64,000 nt of DNA from Escherichia coli phage KS_S14: the sequence record LC788706.1; one strand, given 5' to 3'. Positions 1,951-63,880 of the stretch are shown here, piece after piece (positions within the stretch are counted from its first letter, which is position 1; every line of letters begins with the position of its first letter). Position numbers and translations under genes: made by a program. The notes under the pieces were generated by a model. That model made no database searches. It saw only the letters and a list, made by a program, of their open reading frames with translations, and was not told the origin of the DNA.

Positions 1951-2850
1951 ATGTACTACTCTCTAATGAGAGAGTCAAAAGTTATAGTTGAGTATGATGG
2001 TAGGGCATTTCATTTTGATGCCCTATCAAACTATGATATACAGACTTCCTACGAGGAATTCAAGACTCTTCGTAGGACTGTTCATCGTAGAACTAACTAT
2101 GCAGACTCTATTATAAATGCTCAAACCCCTTCTTCTATCTCTCTAGCAGTAAATTTTAGTAATACTCTTACTGAAGCTAACTTCTTTGAATGGTTAGGTT
2201 TTGATAGAAAAGGTAATACTTTCTTACTCCCATTATATAGTAATAATATTGAACCTATTATGTTCAATATCTATATAGTAAACAAAGATAATAACTGTGT
2301 ATATTTTGAAAACTGTTATGTATCTACAGTAGATTTTTCTTTAGATAAGAATATACCAATTCTTAATATTGGTATTGAGTCTGGGAAATTCTCAGAAGTA
2401 TCTACCTATAGAGAAGCAGCTTCTATTATACAGGGTGAAGTAATGTCTTACAGCCCAGTAATAGCTTCTACTAATGGCAGCATCTTACCCGGTCTTATCT
2501 CTGCTTCCTTATCTTTCCAACAGCAGTGCTCCTGGAGAGAGGATAAGAGTGTTTTTGATATAAATAAAATTTATAATAATAAAAGAGCCTATGTAACTGA
2601 AATGAATGCTTCGGCAACCATTTCTCTATACTACTTAAAACGTTTTGCAGGAGATATGGTTTACAATATCGAACCGGAGACAGATGTACCTTTAAATATA
2701 AGAAATAATAATATTTCTATAGATTTTCCTTCAGCACGTATTACAAAACGCCTAGAGTTCTCAGATGTGTATAGAGTTGAGTGGGATGTTATACCTACTG
2801 CTTCTTCAGACCCAGTGAGAATAGATTTCTTTGGAGAAATTAAAAAATGA
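1951..2850 (+). CDS. hypothetical tail-region protein
   Basis: 299-aa ORF, AT-rich codon usage, start 5 nt after tail tube stop, stop overlaps next start (ATGA). Confidence 0.55.
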   Translation: MYYSLMRESKVIVEYDGRAFHFDALSNYDIQTSYEEFKTLRRTVHRRTNYADSIINAQTPSSISLAVNFSNTLTEANFFEWLGFDRKGNTFLLPLYSNNIEPIMFNIYIVNKDNNCVYFENCYVSTVDFSLDKNIPILNIGIESGKFSEVSTYREAASIIQGEVMSYSPVIASTNGSILPGLISASLSFQQQCSWREDKSVFDINKIYNNKRAYVTEMNASATISLYYLKRFAGDMVYNIEPETDVPLNIRNNNISIDFPSARITKRLEFSDVYRVEWDVIPTASSDPVRIDFFGEIKK

Positions 2851-3251
2851 TTAATTTAAAAGATATTACTCTTGATACTCGTACTATTACTCTTTCCTAC
2901 CCAGGTATGCCGAATTTTAAACTAGAACTTAACTATATGTCTCGTGCTACCTCTAAACGTGTTATTTCTTCTGCTAAACGTGATGAATGGGTTAATGGTA
3001 CGCTGATACAAGTACAGGATGATGATAAGTTTATTGAAGCCTTTGTTGATGCAGCTATTAAAGGCTGGACTGGCTTAACTGTTGGTGACGTTGAAAAACT
3101 GATGCTGATTGAAACTGATGCTGATCCTGAAACTGAAGTTCCTTTTAGCCGCGACAATGCTGTAATGCTTATGCAGAACTCTGCTGCGTTTGATTCTTGG
3201 ATCAACCAGACAGTGTTCCACTTAGACACTTTTCGTAGCCCAAAAGCGTAA
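2847..3251 (+). CDS. putative tail assembly chaperone
   Basis: 134-aa acidic ORF, first of two small ORFs immediately upstream of the tape measure gene (conserved G/GT-like arrangement). Confidence 0.5.
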   Translation: MINLKDITLDTRTITLSYPGMPNFKLELNYMSRATSKRVISSAKRDEWVNGTLIQVQDDDKFIEAFVDAAIKGWTGLTVGDVEKLMLIETDADPETEVPFSRDNAVMLMQNSAAFDSWINQTVFHLDTFRSPKA

Positions 3252-3312
3252 AGAACTCCTAGATGCTGTTGCTGATTTTGCAGATAAGTGTATTAAAAGC
3301 TCAGCATCTAAA

Positions 3313-3681
3313 ATGACTAAACAACAATATTTAATACTTTGTGAATCAATGGGTATAGAGCCTGATCCTAAGGCCATACCTGTTGAACTTGAAGACTTTC
3401 CACCTATTGTAGCTACTAGTATGAATATTTATAATAGTCTAATTGACTGTTTCATACCTGGTGACTTCCCTATCTTTATAGGTAAAGACAAAGCTGCTCT
3501 AGGTGTTTTATTTGATATTTATGGGATTACTGATCCTATAGAAAAAGAATTTGTTCTACACATTATCAATATATTTGATGCTAAAGCTGTAGATGCTGCA
3601 CGTAAACGTGCTGAGAAGCATAAACCGCAAAACGGAAGGATTCCTAACGTTAAGCCACATGCTAGATCTCGTGCACGGTAA
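3313..3681 (+). CDS. putative tail assembly chaperone extension ORF (possible frameshift fusion partner)
   Basis: 122-aa ORF in +1 frame relative to upstream ORF; its frame is open from 3226, overlapping the end of the upstream ORF; weak own RBS. Confidence 0.45.
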   Translation: MTKQQYLILCESMGIEPDPKAIPVELEDFPPIVATSMNIYNSLIDCFIPGDFPIFIGKDKAALGVLFDIYGITDPIEKEFVLHIINIFDAKAVDAARKRAEKHKPQNGRIPNVKPHARSRAR

Positions 3682-3765
3682 AAGTTTCCTCCAATGGGCG
3701 TTCCACGATGAGGCTTGGCTCTGGGTGATTTGCCCAGAGCCTTTTTTTATTGGGAAAAATAAAAC

Positions 3766-6700
3766 ATGACTGATAAGCTAATACGAGAATTACTAATAGA
3801 CGTTAAACAGAAGGGGGCAACTCGTACTGCAAAGTCTATTGAAAACGTATCTGATGCGTTGGAAAATGCTGCTGCTGCTTCCGAACTGACAAATGAGCAG
3901 TTAGGTAAAATGCCCAAAACTCTTTATTCCATTGAGAGGGCAGCAGACAGAGCAGCAAAAAGTCTTACTAAAATGCAAGCTAGTAGGGGTATGGCTGGTA
4001 TCACCAAATCTATTAATGATATTGGTGATAAACTAGATTACCTAGCTATCCAACTTATTGAAGTAACAGATAAACTAGAAATTGGATTCGATGGAGTTTC
4101 TAGATCTGTTAAAACAATGGGCAATGATGTTGCAGCTGCAACAGAGAAAGTTCAAGATAGGTTATACGATACTAATAGAGTTTTAGGCGGTACAACCAGA
4201 GGTTTTAATGATACTGCTGGTGCCGCTGGTAGAGCGTCTAGAGCCATTGGTAATACTTCTGGTTCAGCACGTGGTGCAACTCGTGATTTTGCAGCAATGG
4301 CTAAGATAGGTGGTAGTTTACCTATTATGTACGCAGCTCTTGCTTCCAACATCTTCGTTTTGCAATCAGCATTTGAACAACTTAAACTAGGTGATCAGCT
4401 AAATCGTTTAGAAAAATTTGGTGTTATAGTAGGTACTCAGACAGGTACTCCTGTTCAGACCCTTGCTAGATCACTACAAGAAGCTGCTGGATATGCTATT
4501 TCTTTTGAGGAAGCAATGAGACAGGCATCTTCAGCATCAGCTTATGGGTTTGATGCCGAACAACTTAATAAATTTGGTTTAGTAGCTCGTCGTGCGGCTG
4601 CTGTTCTTGGCGTTGATATGACTGATGCACTTAACCGTGTAATTAAGGGCGTATCTAAACAAGAAATCGAACTTCTGGATGAACTTGGTGTCACCATTCG
4701 TCTTAATGACGCATACGCTGATTATGTTAAACAGTTAAATGCTGCAAACACAGGTATAACATATAATGTTAATAGTCTTACCACTTTCCAGAAGCAACAA
4801 GCATACGCTAATGCGGTAATTGCTGAATCTACTAAGCGTTTTGGCTACCTAGATGAAGTACTACGTGCAACTCCATGGGAGCAATTTGCTGCTAATGCAG
4901 ATGCTGCACTAAGAAAAATACAACAAGCTGCTGCTAAGTATTTAGGGCCAGTAATTGATGCTATCAACACAGTATTTTATACATCTCAGGCTTCTATATC
5001 TGCTGAGGCAGCTAGGGCCCAAGAAAAAACTAATAGACAGATAGACCCTACCAACGTTGGTGCTGTTGCTTTAAGTTTAGCTGCATCTGAAGAAGGCTAT
5101 AATAAAGCTCTAGATATGTATAAGGAATCTCTTGATAAGCGTAATAAGCTAAAATCTGAGTTCGATAAACGAATGGAACAAGCAGATTTCTATACAAAAC
5201 TAGCTATACGTCAAGTTGGTGAAGGTATTCCTATTGGTCTTGCAGCAGCAGGTGCCTCGGAGGCCAATAAGCAATTTGTAGCAGAAACTGCAGCTATGGG
5301 TCTACAAGTAACTAGACTTGGTAAGGAAGTAGAGGATTCTACAGAGAACCTCAATGCTTGGAAATCAGCGTATCAAGCTGCCGGGGCTGCTGCTGCAAAG
5401 GCTAGTCCAGAGTTTCAGAAGCAAATTAATCTACAGAGAGATACTACTGATCCTGGTGCTGTATATGATTTTAACTCTACTGTATTAAAAGGACTAACTG
5501 AGCAGCAGAAAGCATACAATCAGACTAAGAAAACTGCTAGTGACTTAGCTAATGATATACAGAACGTTGCTCAGAATACAGATACTGCTGCTAAAACTAG
5601 TGCTACTTTAGCAGATGCTATAAAAAACATAGAATCTCTATCTCTAGGTACTGGTAAGAGTGCTGATGAATACGTTAAAAATCTTAACCTAGGCTATAAT
5701 ACTCTGTCTGAAATGAAAACTGCGTCTCAGGCCTTATCTGAGTACGTTAAACTAACTGGTAATGAGACTAAGAACCAGTTAGCAGTTCAACAGAAGATAG
5801 CTGACGTATACAACCAAACTAAAGATAAAGAAAAAGCACAGGAAGCTGGTAGGCGTTTAGAACTCCAACAGTTAGAAGAGCAAGAAGCTGCTTTACGCCG
5901 TGTACTTCAAACTAATCAGGGAAATAAAGCTGTTGAGAAAGAAATTGAAAAAATTCAGCTGGAGAAACTTAAACTTACTAATCAGGGTATGGAGGCTCAG
6001 AAGAAGGTTAAGGATTATACAGATAAAATCCTGGGTGTAGATCGTGAGATAGCTCTCTTAAATAACCGTACTATGACAGATACTCAGTATCGTCTAGCAC
6101 AGTTAAATCTTGAATTGACCATTGAAAAGGAAAAGTACGAATGGTATACAAAACAAGCTGATAAACAGAAAGAGGCTGAACAGTCTAGACGTGCTCAAGC
6201 CCAAATTGAACGTGAAATCTGGAAATTCCGCCAAGATCAGATTGCTTCAATGGCTGCTGGTAGAGAGGAAGAACAGCAAAGACAATTTACTGCTAAACCA
6301 CTAATGGGAAATGCGGAGCGCTTACAGGAACAGCTAAAATTATATGAAGACTTAAAGCAGAAAACATTAGGTAATGCTGCGGCACAAGCGGAGTATAATA
6401 AAAAGATAGCTGAAACTAGGGCACAACTAGCAGGTTTAAGGGCACAGAGAAATGCGGAGATGCAAGCTTCTGTTGGATCTTCTTTAGGTGCTGTGTATAC
6501 TCCTACAACTGGACTATCTGGAGAAGATAAAGATTTTGCTGATATGGGAAATAGAATGGCTTCTTATGATCAGGCAATTTCTAAACTATCTGAGTTAAAT
6601 TCCGAAGCAACTGCTGTAGCTCAAAGCATGGGTAATTTAACCAATGCTATGATTCAGTTCTCTATGGGGTCTTTAGACACTACTTCCACGATCGCAGCAG

Positions 6701-7446
6701 GTATGCAGACTGTAGCCTCTATGATTCAATATAGTACTAGTCAACAGGTTAGTGCGATTGATCAGGCTATTGCAGCAGAGCAGAAACGAGATGGTAAATC
6801 AGAAGCATCTAAAGCTAAGTTGAAGAAGTTGGAAGCTGAAAAGCTGAAGATTCAACAAGACGCAGCTAAGAAGCAGATTATCATCCAAACTGCAGTAGCT
6901 GTAATGCAGGCAGCCACCGCTGTTCCATATCCGTTCTCTATTCCACTAATGGTTGCGGCAGGTTTGGCGGGTGCCTTAGCTCTTGCTCAAGCATCTTCTG
7001 CTTCTAGTATGTCAAGTATTGCTGATTCGGGAGCTGATACAACTAGTTACTTAACCTTAGGAGAGCGTCAGAAGAATATAGATGTGTCTATGTCTGCTAA
7101 TGCAGGTGAACTATCTTATATTCGTGGAGATAAAGGCATAGGCGGTGCTAACTCTTTCGTTCCTCGCGCTGAGGGTGGTAATATGTACCCTGGGGTTAGC
7201 TATCAAATGGGTGAGCATGGTACAGAAGTAGTTACCCCTATGGTTCCTATGAAAGCTACACCTAATGATGAGCTAAAAACCTCATCTAACTCAACTTCAG
7301 GAAGACCTATCATCTTGAATATTAGTGCTATGGATGCTGCAAGTTTCAGAGAGTTTGCTTCTAGTAATAGTAGTGCTCTAAGAGACGCAGTAGAATTAGC
7401 TCTGAATGAGAACGGTGCTAGTTTGAAAACATTAGGAAATTCTTAA
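3766..7446 (+). CDS. tail tape measure protein (T5 pb2-like)
   Basis: 1226 aa, long Ala/Gln/Lys-rich coiled-coil, hydrophobic segment near C-terminus (VPYPFSIPLMVAAGLAGALALAQA); size and position as tape measure. Confidence 0.85.
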   Translation: MTDKLIRELLIDVKQKGATRTAKSIENVSDALENAAAASELTNEQLGKMPKTLYSIERAADRAAKSLTKMQASRGMAGITKSINDIGDKLDYLAIQLIEVTDKLEIGFDGVSRSVKTMGNDVAAATEKVQDRLYDTNRVLGGTTRGFNDTAGAAGRASRAIGNTSGSARGATRDFAAMAKIGGSLPIMYAALASNIFVLQSAFEQLKLGDQLNRLEKFGVIVGTQTGTPVQTLARSLQEAAGYAISFEEAMRQASSASAYGFDAEQLNKFGLVARRAAAVLGVDMTDALNRVIKGVSKQEIELLDELGVTIRLNDAYADYVKQLNAANTGITYNVNSLTTFQKQQAYANAVIAESTKRFGYLDEVLRATPWEQFAANADAALRKIQQAAAKYLGPVIDAINTVFYTSQASISAEAARAQEKTNRQIDPTNVGAVALSLAASEEGYNKALDMYKESLDKRNKLKSEFDKRMEQADFYTKLAIRQVGEGIPIGLAAAGASEANKQFVAETAAMGLQVTRLGKEVEDSTENLNAWKSAYQAAGAAAAKASPEFQKQINLQRDTTDPGAVYDFNSTVLKGLTEQQKAYNQTKKTASDLANDIQNVAQNTDTAAKTSATLADAIKNIESLSLGTGKSADEYVKNLNLGYNTLSEMKTASQALSEYVKLTGNETKNQLAVQQKIADVYNQTKDKEKAQEAGRRLELQQLEEQEAALRRVLQTNQGNKAVEKEIEKIQLEKLKLTNQGMEAQKKVKDYTDKILGVDREIALLNNRTMTDTQYRLAQLNLELTIEKEKYEWYTKQADKQKEAEQSRRAQAQIEREIWKFRQDQIASMAAGREEEQQRQFTAKPLMGNAERLQEQLKLYEDLKQKTLGNAAAQAEYNKKIAETRAQLAGLRAQRNAEMQASVGSSLGAVYTPTTGLSGEDKDFADMGNRMASYDQAISKLSELNSEATAVAQSMGNLTNAMIQFSMGSLDTTSTIAAGMQTVASMIQYSTSQQVSAIDQAIAAEQKRDGKSEASKAKLKKLEAEKLKIQQDAAKKQIIIQTAVAVMQAATAVPYPFSIPLMVAAGLAGALALAQASSASSMSSIADSGADTTSYLTLGERQKNIDVSMSANAGELSYIRGDKGIGGANSFVPRAEGGNMYPGVSYQMGEHGTEVVTPMVPMKATPNDELKTSSNSTSGRPIILNISAMDAASFREFASSNSSALRDAVELALNENGASLKTLGNS

Positions 7447-58591: not shown

Positions 58592-58666
58592 CGGGGTGTA
58601 GTCTAAGGGAGAGGCAGGAGTCTTCTAAATTCCTTTATGCAGGTTCGAATCCTGTCACCTCGGCCA
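58592..58666 (+). tRNA. tRNA-Arg (anticodon TCT)
   Basis: Hand fold: acceptor CGGGGTG/CACCTCG, anticodon stem GGAGT/ATTCC, loop CTTCTAA, T-arm GCAGG-TTCGAAT-CCTGT, encoded CCA. Confidence 0.6.
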
Positions 58667-58700
58667 ATTTTATTAACTGTAACTAAAACAAAGGAAACAT

Positions 58701-59648
58701 ATGTTTAATACTAAAAATATGAAAGAACTGACTTCTGAGCAGAAAGTAATTCGTACTATTAAACGTTGGGGTATTGGTGCTGTAGTTGGTTTAGCAGGCT
58801 TGATTCTAGCTTTTAATTCATATACTATTGTTTCTGATGGTACGGTTAAAACCCAAACATTCCTGGGTAAAGTAGATCCTAATCCAGTATTGCCTGGTTT
58901 CCACCTTGTAAACCCGTTTGCATCTTTCGATACTTTTAGTACAAAAGATATTGCTGTAAAATTATATAAACTTCAGGTTCCTAGCCAGGATAAGTTTAAA
59001 TCCACTGTTGACCTGACTGTTATGTTGCAGTTTGATGGTTCTAAGGCACCGATTAACCGTATTAACGCAGGTACTCAGGATCAGGCACTAGACAAGTATG
59101 TAACTGAAAAATTACTGTCTACTATTCGTGAGTTTGGTAAGTCTGTACCTAAAGCACAAGATTTATTTGATGCTAAAATTCAGGCTCAATTGCAAACTGC
59201 AATTCAACAGGAAGTTGAAGAGTATGCACGCCCATATGGTTACACAGTTAAGCAGGTGTTCCTTCAGGATATTACTTTGCCACCGGTAATCATGGAACAG
59301 GTACAGAATACCAAAGTTCGTGAAGAACAGGTTAATGCTGCGAAAGCTGAACTGGCTCGCGTTGAACAAGAAGCTCAGCAGAAAGTCAAACAAGCAGAAG
59401 CAGACCGTGAAGCTCGCAACAACCAAGCTATTGCCAATGAACGTGATGCAGATGCTAAACTGTACGCAGCTAAGAAAGAAGCTGAAGCTAACGCCGCATT
59501 GCAACGTACCATTACTCCTGAGATGATTCGCTGGAAGCAACTGGAAGTTGAAATGATTCGTGCTCAGAAATACCAAGGTGGTGTACCGCAGACTGTGGTT
59601 GGCACTGGCTACGATGGTCAAATGATTATGGATATGCGTAATAAATAA
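58701..59648 (+). CDS. SPFH / band-7 (prohibitin-like) membrane protein
   Basis: 315 aa; N-terminal TM helix (GIGAVVGLAGLILAF), SPFH-like core, Ala/Glu/Gln-rich coiled-coil. Confidence 0.65.
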   Translation: MFNTKNMKELTSEQKVIRTIKRWGIGAVVGLAGLILAFNSYTIVSDGTVKTQTFLGKVDPNPVLPGFHLVNPFASFDTFSTKDIAVKLYKLQVPSQDKFKSTVDLTVMLQFDGSKAPINRINAGTQDQALDKYVTEKLLSTIREFGKSVPKAQDLFDAKIQAQLQTAIQQEVEEYARPYGYTVKQVFLQDITLPPVIMEQVQNTKVREEQVNAAKAELARVEQEAQQKVKQAEADREARNNQAIANERDADAKLYAAKKEAEANAALQRTITPEMIRWKQLEVEMIRAQKYQGGVPQTVVGTGYDGQMIMDMRNK

Positions 59649-59672
59649 TATCCACATGTAACACCTGAAGTA

Positions 59673-59708
59673 AGCCCTGCGTTTCCTGGAGAGCGCAGGG
59701 CTTTTCTG
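59673..59708 (+). terminator. rho-independent terminator after SPFH gene
   Basis: AGCCCTGCG...CGCAGGGCT then TTTTCTG. Confidence 0.7.
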
Positions 59709-59724
59709 TACTTAAGATAAAAGA

Positions 59725-59755
59725 AAAGCCCCTAAGTCTTTCGACTAGGGGCTTT
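59725..59755 (-). terminator. terminator for convergent minus-strand Q-rich gene
   Basis: GCCCCTA(A)GTC...GACTAGGGGC; minus strand followed by TTTTCTTTT. Confidence 0.6.
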
Positions 59756-59972
59756 ATTGTTTGGTTCTTCAGAACCATATACTCTTATTACAGCAACCAC
59801 CCATACGGGAGGCCAATCTTGACTGAAAATCTACTCTAGGGGGCAGGATAAGAGTAGGCTTAAAGGCAAACGGATTGAACGCCGGTATTTGCGTAAACAT
59901 TGCTGGAGAGCAACAACGTGCTACAGGCATTGGGCAGCACGAAACAGATTTTCTGCAACACATAATTCCTCC

Positions 59973-60389
59973 TTAGGAGTTATTACCACTATTTTGAGCT
60001 TTTGCAACCTGGCTTTGGCAGAAGCTATTAAACTTACCCATAAGTGATACAAGCTGTTTACCATCCTCTGTCTTTGCGAAGTCTTCGAAAAGGGCTAGTA
60101 CTGCCTGTCCTTCCGCAGAAACCTGCGGTTGTTGGGTTTGCTGCTGAGCTTGCTGCTGCGGCACCTGTTGCTGCATTTGTTGAGGCATTTGCGACTGCCC
60201 GCTCATTTGCTGCATCATTTGCATAGGACTCACACTTCCAGGGTTTTGCTGGAGTTGTTGCTGCATCTGTTGCGCTTCTGCTAAACGCTGTTGCAATTGT
60301 TGTAAGTAGGGGTTATCCAGACCAGGAATGGGCTGCTGGGAGCCCATACTTTGATTAAGTCCGTTATTTACAAAACCATATTTACTCAT
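59973..60389 (-). CDS. Gln-rich low-complexity protein
   Basis: 138 aa, central Q/M/P-rich tract. Confidence 0.5.
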   Translation of the reverse strand: MSKYGFVNNGLNQSMGSQQPIPGLDNPYLQQLQQRLAEAQQMQQQLQQNPGSVSPMQMMQQMSGQSQMPQQMQQQVPQQQAQQQTQQPQVSAEGQAVLALFEDFAKTEDGKQLVSLMGKFNSFCQSQVAKAQNSGNNS

Positions 60390-60410
60390 AATGGGCTCCT
60401 CCCCTTAATA

Positions 60411-61398
60411 TTAAGCCGGCAGTTTAGCCTGCAGACCAGCCAGAGTCTGAGTGATAGCACCAAGACTTACAGCGATTTGATTAATTACCTGACCGTTAGC
60501 ACCGGTACCCGCAGCGATTGCTTCACGTAGGCGACATGCATCTAACTCATCCTGAATACGCGCAGTAGTTACACCAGCGATCGCAGTCTGAAGTTCACAG
60601 CAACATTCAGCGATCTGACGTTCCAGAGAGTTCTGGTTAGCACACATCTGAGCCTGAACAGCGACAAACTGGTTATTAGTTTGTAAAGTCTGCTGGAAAG
60701 CGATCTGTGCAGAATCAAACTTATCTTGTGCACGAGCTATCTGGTTAGCTGCGAAAGATTGATCGATCTGGCGAGAAAGATCGAACTGACCCTGAATAAC
60801 GTTGCGGGTTTCCTGGCAGATCTGATTAGACAGATTAGCACCTGTACCATAGATCGTAGTTAGTACAGACTGAGTATCACGGCTCTGGTTTTGGGATGTC
60901 TGGCTAAAACCATTGTTAACTGCGCTTAAAACAGCTCCAGTACCCTGGTTAGCTTCTGTACGAGTAGTGTTAATAGCTGCTAGAATACTAGCGGTATCTT
61001 GGTTCTGAAGTACTGCATCAACTGCGGTACCTTCACCAACTACACCACGTCCACCGAATCCACCGAAACCACCGAATCCGCCTGTTAATAGAGCACCGAT
61101 TAGGATAGCTCCGAATAGACCCATACCTTCCCCACCGAAAGCACCTGCGTTTGCTGGATAACCACCCAGTAGGCCAGGGAAGCCACTAGTGAATACGTTT
61201 ACTGGTTCTTGCATTTTATGTTTTCCATATTTATGACAATGCTCATCATCGTCATCTTCTTCATCATCGTGTTCACGATGTTTTTCTTCGTAGGCTCTGA
61301 CCTTCTCCCACTTTTTCTTATCTGATTCCTCGTGACGGTGCAGTTCTGCTGCAACGCTAGCGACGGTCTCAGGACTCTTAGCTACTTCTTCTGTCATT
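60411..61398 (-). CDS. glycine-zipper membrane protein with acidic/His-rich N-terminus and Gln/Asn/Thr-rich C-terminal region
   Basis: Start taken at MTEEVAK with RBS aggagg (ORF-track start 61457); GMGLFGAILIGALLTGGFGGFGGFGG segment. Confidence 0.5.
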
Positions 61399-61469
61399 TT
61401 TTGACACCTCCTAGTATATAGAAAATGTGTGTCTCTTTGATCACTCATCCATAACATATACTTTACACT

Positions 61470-61515
61470 ACCCCAGCGAAAATGTCAAGGGGTCTTTAAA
61501 AATTGCCCCCGGATT
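61470..61515 (-). promoter_or_regulatory. sigma70-like promoter (TTGACA type, minus strand) upstream of Gly-zipper/Q-rich gene pair
   Basis: Minus strand reads CCCTTGACATTTTCGCTGGGGTAGTGTAAAGTAT (TTGACA, 17 bp, TAAAGT). Confidence 0.4.
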
Positions 61516-61594
61516 TTTAGTGGGGTCACAAATTTTGGTCCTCACCACTTATCTGCTACCCTTAAGTGCCCTATGATTTTCCTCTAAAAAGTTA

Positions 61595-61640
61595 AAAAAT
61601 TTGATTGCTTGAATGCTAAATTCTCTGTATAATATATCTA
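61595..61640 (+). promoter_or_regulatory. T5-type early promoter
   Basis: TTGCTT (61605-10), 17 bp, TATAAT (61628-33). Confidence 0.65.
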
Positions 61641-61663
61641 TAAATTTGAGAGAGGAACCAAAT

Positions 61664-62182
61664 ATGAATGTTGATGAACTAACAGAACATCTCTTATCTA
61701 GAGGGTTTGATACAGATAAATATCACTGCTGGCTAAGCCCAGAAGGATGGCTAACAGTCCCATTGTATGACTTCTCTGGGATGTTGAGAGGCTATCAGAC
61801 TTATAATCCTTCTGCTCCAAAAGGTCATGGTAAACGCCCCTTTGAAGCTAGATATTTTACTTATTCTACTACACAGTGTGTAGGGGGACTAGAAACTCTC
61901 AATGGAGACGAAAAAGTAGTATTGATTGCTGAATCTGTATTTAAGGCAGTTGCGTTACATAACGCTGGTTATCCAGCCCTGGCAATGTTGGGTTCTTCCC
62001 CTGGAAAAGCGTTGTTAAAGCAATTGAAATTACTACCTTTTAAATTGGTAGCTGTTGGGGATAATGATCCTGCTGGTGAAAAATTTGCTAGACAATTAAA
62101 TGGATTTGTTTCTCCTGTAGATGTGGATGAGATGTCTACCGAAAACTTGAAAAATTTTCTTGCTATGAAGCTAAATTTCTAA
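61664..62182 (+). CDS. Toprim-like small protein
   Basis: ATG 61664 with RBS gagagga; IAESVF (Glu) and VGDNDPAG (DxD) Toprim-like. Confidence 0.45.
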   Translation: MNVDELTEHLLSRGFDTDKYHCWLSPEGWLTVPLYDFSGMLRGYQTYNPSAPKGHGKRPFEARYFTYSTTQCVGGLETLNGDEKVVLIAESVFKAVALHNAGYPALAMLGSSPGKALLKQLKLLPFKLVAVGDNDPAGEKFARQLNGFVSPVDVDEMSTENLKNFLAMKLNF

Positions 62183-62195
62183 TATAATATATTTA
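62155..62195 (+). promoter_or_regulatory. T5-type promoter immediately upstream of tRNA-Ser
   Basis: TTGCTA (62160-65), 18 bp, TATAAT (62184-89); lies in 3' end of preceding ORF. Confidence 0.55.
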
Positions 62196-62202
62196 TAAAT
62201 TC

Positions 62203-62291
62203 GGAAGAATAGCATAACGGTATTGCAGCAGATTGCTAATCTGTCGGTTTGAAATATAGCCTTGTGGGTTCGATTCCCACTTCTTCCGCCA
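62203..62291 (+). tRNA. tRNA-Ser (anticodon GCT), long variable arm
   Basis: Acceptor GGAAGAA/TTCTTCC, 3-bp D-stem, anticodon stem GCAGA/TCTGT, loop TTGCTAA, long variable arm, T-arm GTGGG-TTCGATT-CCCAC, encoded CCA. Confidence 0.7.
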
Positions 62292-62297
62292 AATTCT

Positions 62298-62375
62298 GGT
62301 TCTCAAGCTCATATGGTATGAGCACCCGGCTCATAACCGGAAGGTACGTAGGTTCGAATCCTCGGGGAGCCACCA
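62298..62375 (+). tRNA. tRNA with CAT anticodon (Met or Ile2-type), weak T-stem
   Basis: Acceptor GGTTCTC/GGGAGCC with G-U pairs, D-stem GCTC/GAGC, anticodon loop CTCATAA, TTCGAAT T-loop but only 3 T-stem pairs; encoded CCA. Confidence 0.45.
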
Positions 62376-62395
62376 ACTTAATTAGGGGATTACAA

Positions 62396-62584
62396 GTGGA
62401 ATTATACATAGTTTATGTTGTGTTTATTCAAGATAGAGAATACCCTGATGAATATAAAAAAGGATATAGGTTAGCCAGAGCTACTTCTGAAGCCCAAGCT
62501 ATGGATAAAGTGGCAGATTATATGCTTACAGTAGAAAACGTACACTACATCGACTACCTTGAAGCCTCAAAAGTAATTGACTAA
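62396..62584 (+). CDS. hypothetical small protein
   Basis: 62-aa ORF from GTG 62396 after RBS aggggat; the longer ORF-track ORF from 62249 overlaps tRNA genes. Confidence 0.3.
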   Translation: MELYIVYVVFIQDREYPDEYKKGYRLARATSEAQAMDKVADYMLTVENVHYIDYLEASKVID

Positions 62585-62591
62585 ACTACAC

Positions 62592-62668
62592 GGGGGTGTA
62601 ATCGAATTGGCATAGGTACTGGACTTAAAATTCAGGTTTTGTGGGTTCGAATCCCACCACCCCTACCA
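62592..62668 (+). tRNA. tRNA with TAA anticodon (Leu-like) and short variable loop
   Basis: Acceptor GGGGGTG/CACCCCT, anticodon stem CTGGA/TTCAG, loop CTTAAAA, T-arm GTGGG-TTCGAAT-CCCAC, encoded CCA; short variable loop is atypical for Leu. Confidence 0.5.
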
Positions 62669-62843
62669 AATTAAGGAAATAAGATGTATAGACACCCACC
62701 TCCGCCAACACGTCGTTCTAGAGAAGTTATCCTCATGGAATTGACTAAAAACTTCAAGGCAACTCTTGAGGATAGAGATTTAGGCACGGATGAAGACATT
62801 GATTTTATTTGTAGACTATTAAAGATGAAACTGGAGAAACAAC

Positions 62844-63050
62844 ATGGCTAATCCTGAAATTACCATGCAACGATTCATGGCTAAAGGCATGATAGCTGAG
62901 GCAGGCATTGAACAAGAAGTAAAAAGTTATTACGAACAGATTAAGGGTATTGTAGACTCGGCTAAAAACACCGGAGAAAAAGAACATGGTGCGGCAATTA
63001 TGGCTATAACTCTTATTAGTCTAGACTTGGCCGAAGAATCTGGAGTTTAG
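62844..63050 (+). CDS. hypothetical protein
   Basis: 68-aa ORF, RBS ggaga. Confidence 0.4.
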   Translation: MANPEITMQRFMAKGMIAEAGIEQEVKSYYEQIKGIVDSAKNTGEKEHGAAIMAITLISLDLAEESGV

Positions 63051-63069
63051 CTCCTCCAAACAGAATTTT

Positions 63070-63115
63070 TAAAAATGTACTTGCCTTTTGCTTTAAATTT
63101 CTGATATAATAGTTG
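63070..63115 (+). promoter_or_regulatory. T5-type early promoter
   Basis: TTGCCT (63081-86), 18 bp, TATAAT (63105-10). Confidence 0.6.
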
Positions 63116-63140
63116 TATAAATTGATGAAGGAGTTAACGA

Positions 63141-63416
63141 ATGCAAAATCGTGTTATAGCAACTGGTATTGAAAGTGCAATCTGCAAATCCTGGGAAGAC
63201 TGGGAAGGTGAGATTGAGTGGCTCTATCTCTATAACGTAGAGCTTTTACCAGAAGTTAAAGCTGAATGTATTGAAGCTGGCATGGCTCCAGATGCAAAAG
63301 CTGATATTGATATTTTAATGTCTGAACTTAAAGGTCGTGTAGTTACTGTTAGTACTGAGGGTGAAGAAGTTTTTGAACTTCCGTTCTCCTTAACTGTCAC
63401 TCCTAAGTTCGACTAA
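63141..63416 (+). CDS. hypothetical acidic protein
   Basis: 91-aa ORF, RBS gaaggag, T5-type promoter upstream. Confidence 0.45.
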   Translation: MQNRVIATGIESAICKSWEDWEGEIEWLYLYNVELLPEVKAECIEAGMAPDAKADIDILMSELKGRVVTVSTEGEEVFELPFSLTVTPKFD

Positions 63417-63424
63417 CTAATACA

Positions 63425-63463
63425 GCACTGAGCAAGTTCTTCAAAATTTGACTTGCTCAGTGC
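63425..63463 (+). terminator. inverted-repeat hairpin overlapping promoter -35
   Basis: 12-bp arms GCACTGAGCAAG / CTTGCTCAGTGC. Confidence 0.45.
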
Positions 63464-63485
63464 CTTAAAACTTGGTATAATAGTT
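63440..63485 (+). promoter_or_regulatory. T5-type promoter upstream of tRNA-Tyr/Glu cluster
   Basis: TTGCTC (63453-58), 17 bp, TATAAT (63476-81); -35 lies in 3' arm of an inverted repeat. Confidence 0.55.
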
Positions 63486-63544
63486 ATCTAATTCGGAAAC
63501 ATATTTAAAAGTGTTTAAACTAGTATTTGAATACTTTTAAATAT

Positions 63545-63635
63545 GTTGGATTAGTATCGTAGAGGTAGCGAAGCAGACTGTAAATCTGCCGACTCGGAAG
63601 GGTCTCGGGTGGTTCGACTCCATCATCCAACACCA
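63545..63635 (+). tRNA. tRNA-Tyr (anticodon GTA), long variable arm
   Basis: Acceptor GTTGGAT/ATCCAAC, anticodon stem GCAGA/TCTGC, loop CTGTAAA, long variable arm, T-arm GGTGG-TTCGACT-CCATC, encoded CCA. Confidence 0.7.
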
Positions 63636-63642
63636 AATTTAA

Positions 63643-63719
63643 GTCCTGTTAGACAAACTGGTAAAGTCACTACCCTTTCAAGGTAGGGTTTGCGGGTTCG
63701 ATCCCCGCACAGGACCCCA
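63643..63719 (+). tRNA. tRNA-Glu (anticodon TTC)
   Basis: Acceptor GTCCTGT/ACAGGAC, anticodon stem CTACC/GGTAG, loop CTTTCAA, T-arm GCGGG-TTCGATC-CCCGC, encoded CCA. Confidence 0.7.
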
Positions 63720-63728
63720 ATTAATAAT

Positions 63729-63796
63729 TGGGGTACGCATAGGTTGCAAATGGGCCTCCAAAACCCATGAAAAGGTTTCGAATACCTTTACCCCTG
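63729..63796 (+). tRNA. tRNA-like element with 9-nt anticodon-like loop, no CCA
   Basis: Perfect T-arm AAGGT-TTCGAAT-ACCTT, acceptor-like GGGGTA/TACCCC, 5-bp stem ATGGG/CCCAT enclosing 9-nt loop CCTCCAAAA, minimal D-arm. Confidence 0.3.
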
Positions 63797-63805
63797 CTAA
63801 AATTT

Positions 63806-63880
63806 GCACCTTTAGCTGAGATGGATTAGCGCTTGCCTGAAGAGCTTGAGAGGTTCGTTCGATACGAACAGGGTGCACCA
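63806..63880 (+). tRNA. tRNA, anticodon ambiguous (GAA or CTG)
   Basis: Acceptor GCACCTT/AGGGTGC, D-stem GCTG/TAGC, T-arm GTTCG-TTCGATA-CGAAC, encoded CCA; anticodon stem has two alternative registers. Confidence 0.5.

Follow-up and report, generated by a model that had tools for sequence, protein, structure and literature searches.

In phage lambda the tail assembly chaperones gpG and gpGT are encoded by two open reading frames (ORFs) directly upstream of the tape-measure gene. Standard decoding gives the short product, the second ORF has no start or ribosome binding site (RBS) of its own, and the two are joined by a -1 shift at an X_XXY_YYZ heptamer, G_GGA_AAG, which provides the small amount of GT needed. 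A conserved frameshift in tail assembly chaperones was reportedly described by Xu, Hendrix and Duda in 2004. Phage tail genes are also recoded in non-canonical directions, as in Mu gpGT (-2) and in Listeria phage PSA and Bacillus phage SPP1 (+1); PSA uses CCC_UGA or a pseudoknot, and SPP1 and PSA recode a major tail or capsid protein, not a chaperone. Among +1 signals, the UUU_CGN cassette of influenza A PA-X and the Amalgaviridae places UUU in the P-site before CGN, and tRNA-Phe moves onto UUC with no evident stimulatory structure. Bacterial translation is especially +1-prone at UUU_Ynn, the likely site in Yersinia YopN-TyeA (PMC5009743). Here we describe a chaperone gene pair of Escherichia coli phage KS_S14, from an analysis of a stretch of 64,000 nucleotides of record LC788706.1 (the window), and argue that its two ORFs are probably joined by a +1 slip at a UUU_CGN site.

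The window belongs to a T5-like phage of the Demerecviridae; over 2700-3800 it shares 97.5% identity with Escherichia phage TrudiRoth, and the same region matched 444 T5-like phage records. ORF1 (2847-3251, + strand, frame 0) encodes a G-like short tail assembly chaperone of 134 amino acids (aa) and 15.2 kDa, the product of standard decoding, and ORF2 (3313-3681, + strand, 122 aa) is the T-like C-terminal domain as usually annotated. The assignment of the two as the G and T parts of a lambda G/GT-type pair is well supported on sequence grounds: as in lambda, they lie directly upstream of the tape-measure gene, and ORF2 occupies another frame, which overlaps the 3' end of ORF1 and has no independent start or RBS. 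The low efficiency expected here would also fit the small requirement for GT in lambda. In contrast with lambda, the shift would be +1 rather than -1 and no X_XXY_YYZ heptamer leads into ORF2. The locus thus appears to belong to an already known type of system, whose recoding signal would here take a new form, conserved across the Demerecviridae.

From sequence comparisons we infer the following course of events, to which we assign, as a whole, a probability of roughly 0.7; that a frameshift fusion of some sort is made we regard as very probable. Most ribosomes would end at the ORF1 stop and give the 134-aa chaperone, the presumed coat of the tape measure protein (TMP). The candidate shift cassette, ACU_UUU_CGU (3228-3236, + strand), would occupy the E, P and A sites in frame 0 (Thr-Phe-Arg), and within it lies the candidate slip tetranucleotide U_UUC (3231-3234, + strand). 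In a small fraction of ribosomes, tRNA-Phe(GAA) on the P-site UUU (3231-3233) would slip one base forward and re-pair on UUC (3232-3234), a wobble G:C replacing G.U, and decoding would restart at GUA (3235-3237) in the +1 frame, running through a start-less linker into ORF2. The T-like domain would be produced chiefly or exclusively as the C-terminus of the resulting fusion (...HLDTF|VAQKRKELL...), predicted at 277 aa and 31.1 kDa and not at the roughly 260 aa first suggested. The slip is expected to be unstimulated and of low efficiency, probably a few per cent because no stimulator was found.

The original prediction, made on the window alone, had placed ORF2 in the +1 frame relative to ORF1 and had that frame open from 3226, overlapping the last eight codons of ORF1; the ORF coordinates agree on both counts (an overlap of 26 nt including the stop). 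The 5' limit for a productive +1 shift is the +1-frame TAG at 3223-3225 (+ strand), and in most lineages a +1-frame stop lies two to five codons upstream of the TTT. The -1 frame is closed by TAG at 3236-3238 and again at 3260-3262, and therefore only a +1 or a -2 shift can join the two ORFs. By itself the 29-codon open stretch is within chance for AT-rich DNA, with P at about 0.1-0.15 by rough estimate; what goes beyond chance, as far as sequence comparison can tell, is its conservation and its codon periodicity.

The frame relation is established by comparison. ORF2 is +1 to ORF1 in 13 of 13 cultured Demerecviridae lineages, namely those of Tequintavirus, Epseptimavirus (two), Sugarlandvirus, Novosibvirus, Pogseptimavirus and Thalassavirus, together with KEY, KKP_3711, Slocum, Eos, KIT04 and D378. 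Aeromonas phage AhSzq-1 makes a 14th +1 lineage only if TAG is read as sense (see below). The same relation holds in all 28 close IMG/VR contigs. A tblastn search with the conceptual fusion matched 909 phage records, and among 60 rows sampled to spread across them all were in two pieces, bar one 2.8-kb partial BF23 fragment; additional locus scans with Vibrio and Proteus ORF1 queries contributed five more loci.

Evidence that the two ORFs are read together also comes from the linker between them. In the +1 frame this linker (VAQKRKELLDAVADFADKCIKSSASK, 3235-3312, + strand) is start-less, and its peptide can be aligned across genera. Its first part, 3235-3251, is dual-coded with the tail of ORF1 (part of R, then SPKA and the stop). 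In the remaining 61 nt (3252-3312), compared column by column in 32 distinct close relatives, variation falls on third positions of the +1 frame (15/21 columns) far more than on first (5/20) or second positions (2/20), that is, 15/21 against 7/40 elsewhere (Fisher p = 5e-5). The pattern is that of the ORF2 body (76/123, 19/123 and 12/123 columns at positions 3, 1 and 2, respectively), and in the ORF1 body it is the frame-0 third position that varies (89/128 columns). In the window's own lineage the periodicity changes from frame 0 to +1 between 3227 and 3240. By these comparisons the start-less segment 3252-3312 evolves as +1-frame coding sequence.

Profile matches point the same way. ORF1 matches PHROG 313, 'tail assembly chaperone', at profile positions 12-139 of 258 (E 8e-34), and ORF2 matches PHROG 3914 as well as positions 171-258 of PHROG 313. 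The conceptual fusion matches PHROG 313 in one stretch, residues 1-262 on positions 12-258 of 258, with 181.5 bits, and fusions from nine lineages align collinearly across the junction. Pfam, NCBIfam and PDB profile searches returned no match for ORF1 or ORF2, a similarity search with the fusion gave nothing over threshold despite 1128 word candidates, and the single-sequence AlphaFold2 model of ORF1 was unusable (predicted local distance difference test 34.5). When 1.84 billion representatives were searched exhaustively by HMMER with the +1-frame translation, 150 clusters of T-domain relatives came up. None of the 150 is an in-frame G-T protein, their lengths being 60-178 aa save for one entry of 1455 aa (P0020), which was rejected as a repeat artefact. 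Several of the predicted T-domain proteins reach upstream through 'xF(V/E)'.

Could ORF2 instead be translated independently from AUG 3313, by weak direct initiation or by re-initiation past the ORF1 stop, the open +1 frame upstream being incidental? Two separate 'tail assembly chaperone' coding sequences (CDS) are annotated in the T5 RefSeq entry (T5.143 and T5.142) and in most other records. The Sugarland genome paper (PMC6256483), citing Zivanovic et al. 2014, likewise reports no predicted frameshift signal for Sugarland, 'similar to T5', and the search for a stimulatory element, which found none, would fit as well. However, this explanation cannot account for the +1 periodicity and peptide conservation of the start-less segment 3252-3312 or for the single-stretch match to PHROG 313, and it leaves unaccounted for the -1 heptamers found at the same position in a sister clade (below). 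Nor does it explain the state of the start itself. ORF2 had been noted to have a weak RBS, and the duplex energy with the anti-Shine-Dalgarno (SD) sequence upstream of ATG 3313 is indeed only -0.1 kcal/mol; the median is -5.4 kcal/mol for 44 gene starts of the window and -1.5 for internal in-frame ATGs, and the ORF1 start has a good SD (-6.4 kcal/mol). The ATG is not conserved either: in Sugarlandvirus, KKP_3711 and Eos its aligned place is taken by ATT or ATA. The +1 frame of Eos has its first ATG 134 nt further downstream, within the conserved domain, and in several Vibrio phages, too, the first ATG of that frame falls inside the domain. Neither ATG nor GTG nor TTG occurs in the +1 frame between 3226 and 3312. 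Independent translation of ORF2 is, on this balance, distinctly improbable. Initiation at ATT 3292 was also considered and rejected, the +1 coding periodicity reaching further upstream.

Between the putative shift site and ATG 3313 the RNA can form a hairpin (3260-3310, + strand) with a 9-bp stem, TAGATGCUG (3260-3268) pairing with CAGCAUCUA (3302-3310), which ends 2 nt before the AUG. Its fold z is -1.9; one relative (L032) carries the compensatory pair T3267C and A3303G, and in two relatives A3306G leaves a G.U pair. Other genera form different hairpins, placed elsewhere; those of phiR2-01 and Eos, with stems of their own, likewise tie up the stretch immediately 5' of the AUG/AUA position. 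The hairpin may serve to mask the internal AUG 3313.

Where, then, would the frame change? Comparison establishes the invariance and position of one element: TTT CGN (3231-3236) does not change across the 32 close relatives or the 14 lineages (AhSzq-1 included only if TAG is sense), and the codon before it varies among lineages (ACT, ACC, ACG, AAC, TCA or CGA). With each permitted shift window bounded by the last +1-frame stop and the frame-0 stop, the smallest measure 14 nt in Vibrio phage D378 (ACAACTTTCGTTAA) and 17 nt in KIT04 and Eos. What the permitted windows of all lineages have in common is five aligned codons, (L/I)-(N/D)-(N/T)-F-R, and within these re-pairing is possible only for UUU to UUC. 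No element other than UUU_CGN is shared by all the permitted windows, and in the cassette at 3228-3236 a frame-0 UUU followed by C lies inside the productive window, as in +1 sites of the UUU_Y type. The site is not of the prfB type, its stop lying five codons after the UUU with no SD-like sequence upstream in any lineage, and a -2 step from UUU would lead to CUU or ACU, with poor pairing.

In the other ORFs of the window of at least 150 aa, in-frame TTT_CGN occurs 3 times (10957, + strand; 41507 and 59345, - strand) against 11.3 expected (Poisson 0.004), and in-frame TTC_CGN shows no depletion (9 observed, 9.0 expected). The roughly four-fold depletion of TTT_CGN would fit the proposed site and is suggestive only.

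The original prediction had joined the chaperone ORFs by a frameshift in an unusual direction, a +1 or -2 step in place of the common -1, a core reading that the comparisons support well, and had placed the slip at a C-CCA-AAA-G run. That run is present as CCCAAAAG (3239-3246, + strand), starting one base off the 3238 originally given, but it is probably not the conserved shift site, being polymorphic in close relatives and absent or broken in other genera. A shift there, at CCA_AAA_G (3240-3246), would be either +1, with tRNA-Lys re-pairing from AAA to AAG, which is possible, or -2, for which Mu gpGT offers a precedent (PMC3498833). Positions 3241-3251 are invariant in the 32 relatives, and CAAAA(G/T) is kept in Tequintavirus, Epseptimavirus and Sugarlandvirus. 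Moreover, two records from the Center for Phage Technology (CPT), Salmonella phages Shivani (AJA73579.1) and Sw2 (AXY85088.1), carry a 'Tape Measure Chaperone Frameshift Product' that joins the same two genes. By exact-sequence look-up the Shivani product reads ...TFRSSK|KRKELL..., a -2 join at TCA_AAA_G, which lies 10 nt, slightly more than three codons, downstream from the UUU site. The Shivani genome announcement does not mention a frameshift, and no published rationale for the join was found.

The distribution of the run argues against it as the slip site. It is missing in eight lineages (KEY, Eos, Novosibvirus and five Vibrio-phage lineages), in which ORF1 ends 0-2 codons past the Arg; it is broken in phiR2-01 (CCCAAAGT; CCA AAG TCG) and Slocum (ATC AAG TCG), and KKP_3711 keeps only ACAAAAT. 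With the A-run not conserved across the family, a Mu-type -2 shift has no family-wide counterpart here, and a shift at the run would mean that lineages of a single family do not all slip at the same site. Position 3240, the only polymorphic site in 3228-3251, is C in 17 and T in 15 of the 32 close relatives, so that the run reads TCAAAAG in 15, including T5 itself. The exchange is non-synonymous in frame 0 (Pro/Ser) and silent in +1 (Ala), as it should be if ribosomes have entered the +1 frame by that point. No variation is seen at 3236, 3239 and 3242, third positions of frame 0, suggesting that selection on the +1 frame is at work upstream of the run, and the +1-frame peptide 'F-V-A-Q/N' is conserved across four genera, whereas the frame-0 tails differ. 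We consider a slip at the A-run unlikely, though less firmly so for the window's own lineage taken alone. C_CCA_AAA (3239-3245) is also an in-register canonical -1 heptamer, with T_CA in about half of the close relatives; a -1 slip on it, which would swap the last residue of ORF1 for five others, was rejected in view of the TAG at 3260-3262 five codons later and of the heptamer's lack of conservation.

Short homopolymers at both candidate sites also bring transcriptional slippage to mind, with a base inserted or skipped by RNA polymerase at the T-run (CTTTTC) or the A-run. For such slippage to be productive, some seven or more identical bases are normally required. The runs are only 3-4 nt long and most lineages have TTT, not TTTT, which makes this explanation highly improbable.

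Several points, besides the Shivani join and the Sugarland report, weigh against a +1 slip at UUU_C. CGU is common, both in the window, where it makes up 46% of Arg codons, and in E. coli (20.2 per 1000; Table 1, PMC3498833); a slow A-site codon, the classical aid to +1 slippage, is therefore not evident, and in the Vibrio-phage lineages the A-site codon is CGA. The lineages compared have no conserved SD-like element upstream and no 3' structure at a fixed distance from the shift site. The invariance of UUU, CG and the next G could be explained by constraint on the proteins, Phe-Arg in G and Phe-Val/Glu in GT, and the conserved CGN may partly reflect constraint from two overlapping frames. Finally, the lineages counted are phylogenetically non-independent, and the argument from 3240 concerns a single site.

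A further line of evidence for recoding at this position comes from a sister clade of 26 environmental contigs of up to 102 kb (L040-L064 and L069; e.g., IMGVR_UViG_3300047553_000733), to which no cultured phage more than 60% identical was found. Their ORF1 is 31-40% identical to that of the window, the homology mostly ending at F129, and their T-domain homologue lies in the -1 frame. All 26 have a canonical X_XXY_YYZ heptamer 12-18 nt upstream of the ORF1 stop, at homologous Asn-Phe codons: G_GGA_AAC, which is close to the lambda heptamer, in 15 loci, and A_AAU_UUU in 11. A canonical -1 heptamer leading into the T domain was found in this clade only and not in the window. The recoding arrangement is accordingly conserved in 14 lineages with +1 (AhSzq-1 if TAG is sense) and 26 contigs with -1; since the -1 heptamers sit at the homologous Asn-Phe codons, the position of recoding would be conserved and its direction different. 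On these alignments recoding at the Asn-Phe position is ancestral to the family. The Phe codon is TTT in 14 of 14 +1 lineages, in contrast with TTC in 11 of 15 G_GGA_AAC loci (p = 5e-5, the lineages being non-independent). At the latter no +1 slip is needed.

AhSzq-1 (Shenzhenvirus, T5-like; L010, which is NC_047949.1 90895-92355, with L078 and L079) seemed an exception, with stops in both chaperone ORFs; this is resolved because every internal in-frame stop in them is TAG. With TAG as sense, AhSzq-1 becomes the fourteenth +1 lineage, with TTT CGA. Reading TAG as sense raises the open frames of at least 300 codons from 3053 to 6468 codons in 1-50 kb and from 2086 to 10094 codons in 50-100 kb; no such rise is seen with TGA or TAA as sense, nor in the window taken as a control. 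A tRNA with anticodon CTA lies inside the tRNA cluster (L079 12795-12869), and its RefSeq entry, annotated under the standard code, is broken up, with RNR, ligase, TMP, portal and capsid in pieces. AhSzq-1 thus appears to read TAG as a sense codon. PMC6669705 contains no recoding terms, and recoding is absent from the titles of the papers naming the phage.

The proposed site closely resembles the influenza PA-X cassette, UCC_UUU_CGU (PMC5009743, PMC3498833), in its P-site UUU before CGN, in the tRNA-Phe step onto UUC, in the absence of an evident stimulatory structure and in the low efficiency expected. It differs in that the ribosome is bacterial and the virus a DNA phage, that the E-site codon is ACU, ACC, ACG, AAC or UCA and not UCC, and that neither this phage nor its host has CGU as a rare codon. 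With the bacterial UUU_Ynn sites such as YopN-TyeA it shares the tetranucleotide logic and the type of translation system; those sites are mostly adventitious or confined to a single gene, whereas here conservation is family-wide and the protein is one of structural assembly.

Our literature search found no +1 or UUU_CGN chaperone frameshift for T5-like phages (Zivanovic et al. 2014 being known second-hand). If the proposed slip is real, T5, which has been reported without a frameshift signal, would have one after all. T5 serves as a model siphophage, the structure and assembly of its tail being the subject of detailed study, and a defined site would supply its missing GT-type fusion; the annotation of roughly 900 Demerecviridae genomes would then be corrected. 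UUU_CGN would become a cross-kingdom +1 recoding signal shared with influenza A PA-X and the amalgaviruses, with a family-wide bacterial example added to a motif that eukaryotic RNA viruses have so far chiefly supplied. Between them, the -1 clade and its +1 sister would constitute a natural experiment in which the direction of recoding changed and the gene product was kept. That all these elements hold jointly, i.e., an unstimulated UUU_CGN +1 slip to GT throughout the Demerecviridae, T5 included, a -1/+1 switch at the same codons and a signal shared across kingdoms, seems to us somewhat likely.

The genes around the pair follow a G/GT-like order, with one extra gene after that of the tail tube. 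A tail terminator-like ORF (37-522) is followed by the gene of a pb6-like major tail tube protein (TTP; 549-1946, + strand), the presumed partner of the T domain. The extra gene encodes a p140-like protein of 299 aa (1951-2850, + strand; PF23779 match for 1951-2847) and lies between the tail tube gene and ORF1, a further difference from lambda. Downstream of the chaperone ORFs, a strong terminator-like hairpin of 11 pairs followed by a T-run (3717-3741) separates them from the gene of the pb2-like TMP (3766-7446, + strand, 1226 aa), which is labelled tape measure or pb2 in relatives and is the presumed client of the chaperones. The annotations of T5, KEY, Shiner and Slocum show the same terminator-like feature. 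On the side of the terminator where the tape-measure gene comes directly in the window, T5 has the gene of an HNH endonuclease (T5.141). In the RefSeq record of Salmonella phage GSW6 (NC_111398.1; L001) the CDS of a 'baseplate tail tube protein' is merged with or extended over ORF1 (locus 1-1042) and only ORF2 is listed as a chaperone, which looks like an annotation inconsistency. Lastly, positions 58592-63880 of the window hold a phage tRNA cluster with Arg(TCT), Ser(GCT), Leu(TAA), Tyr(GTA), Glu(TTC) and Phe(GAA); the phage encodes its own tRNA-Phe(GAA), the same tRNA as that proposed to slip.

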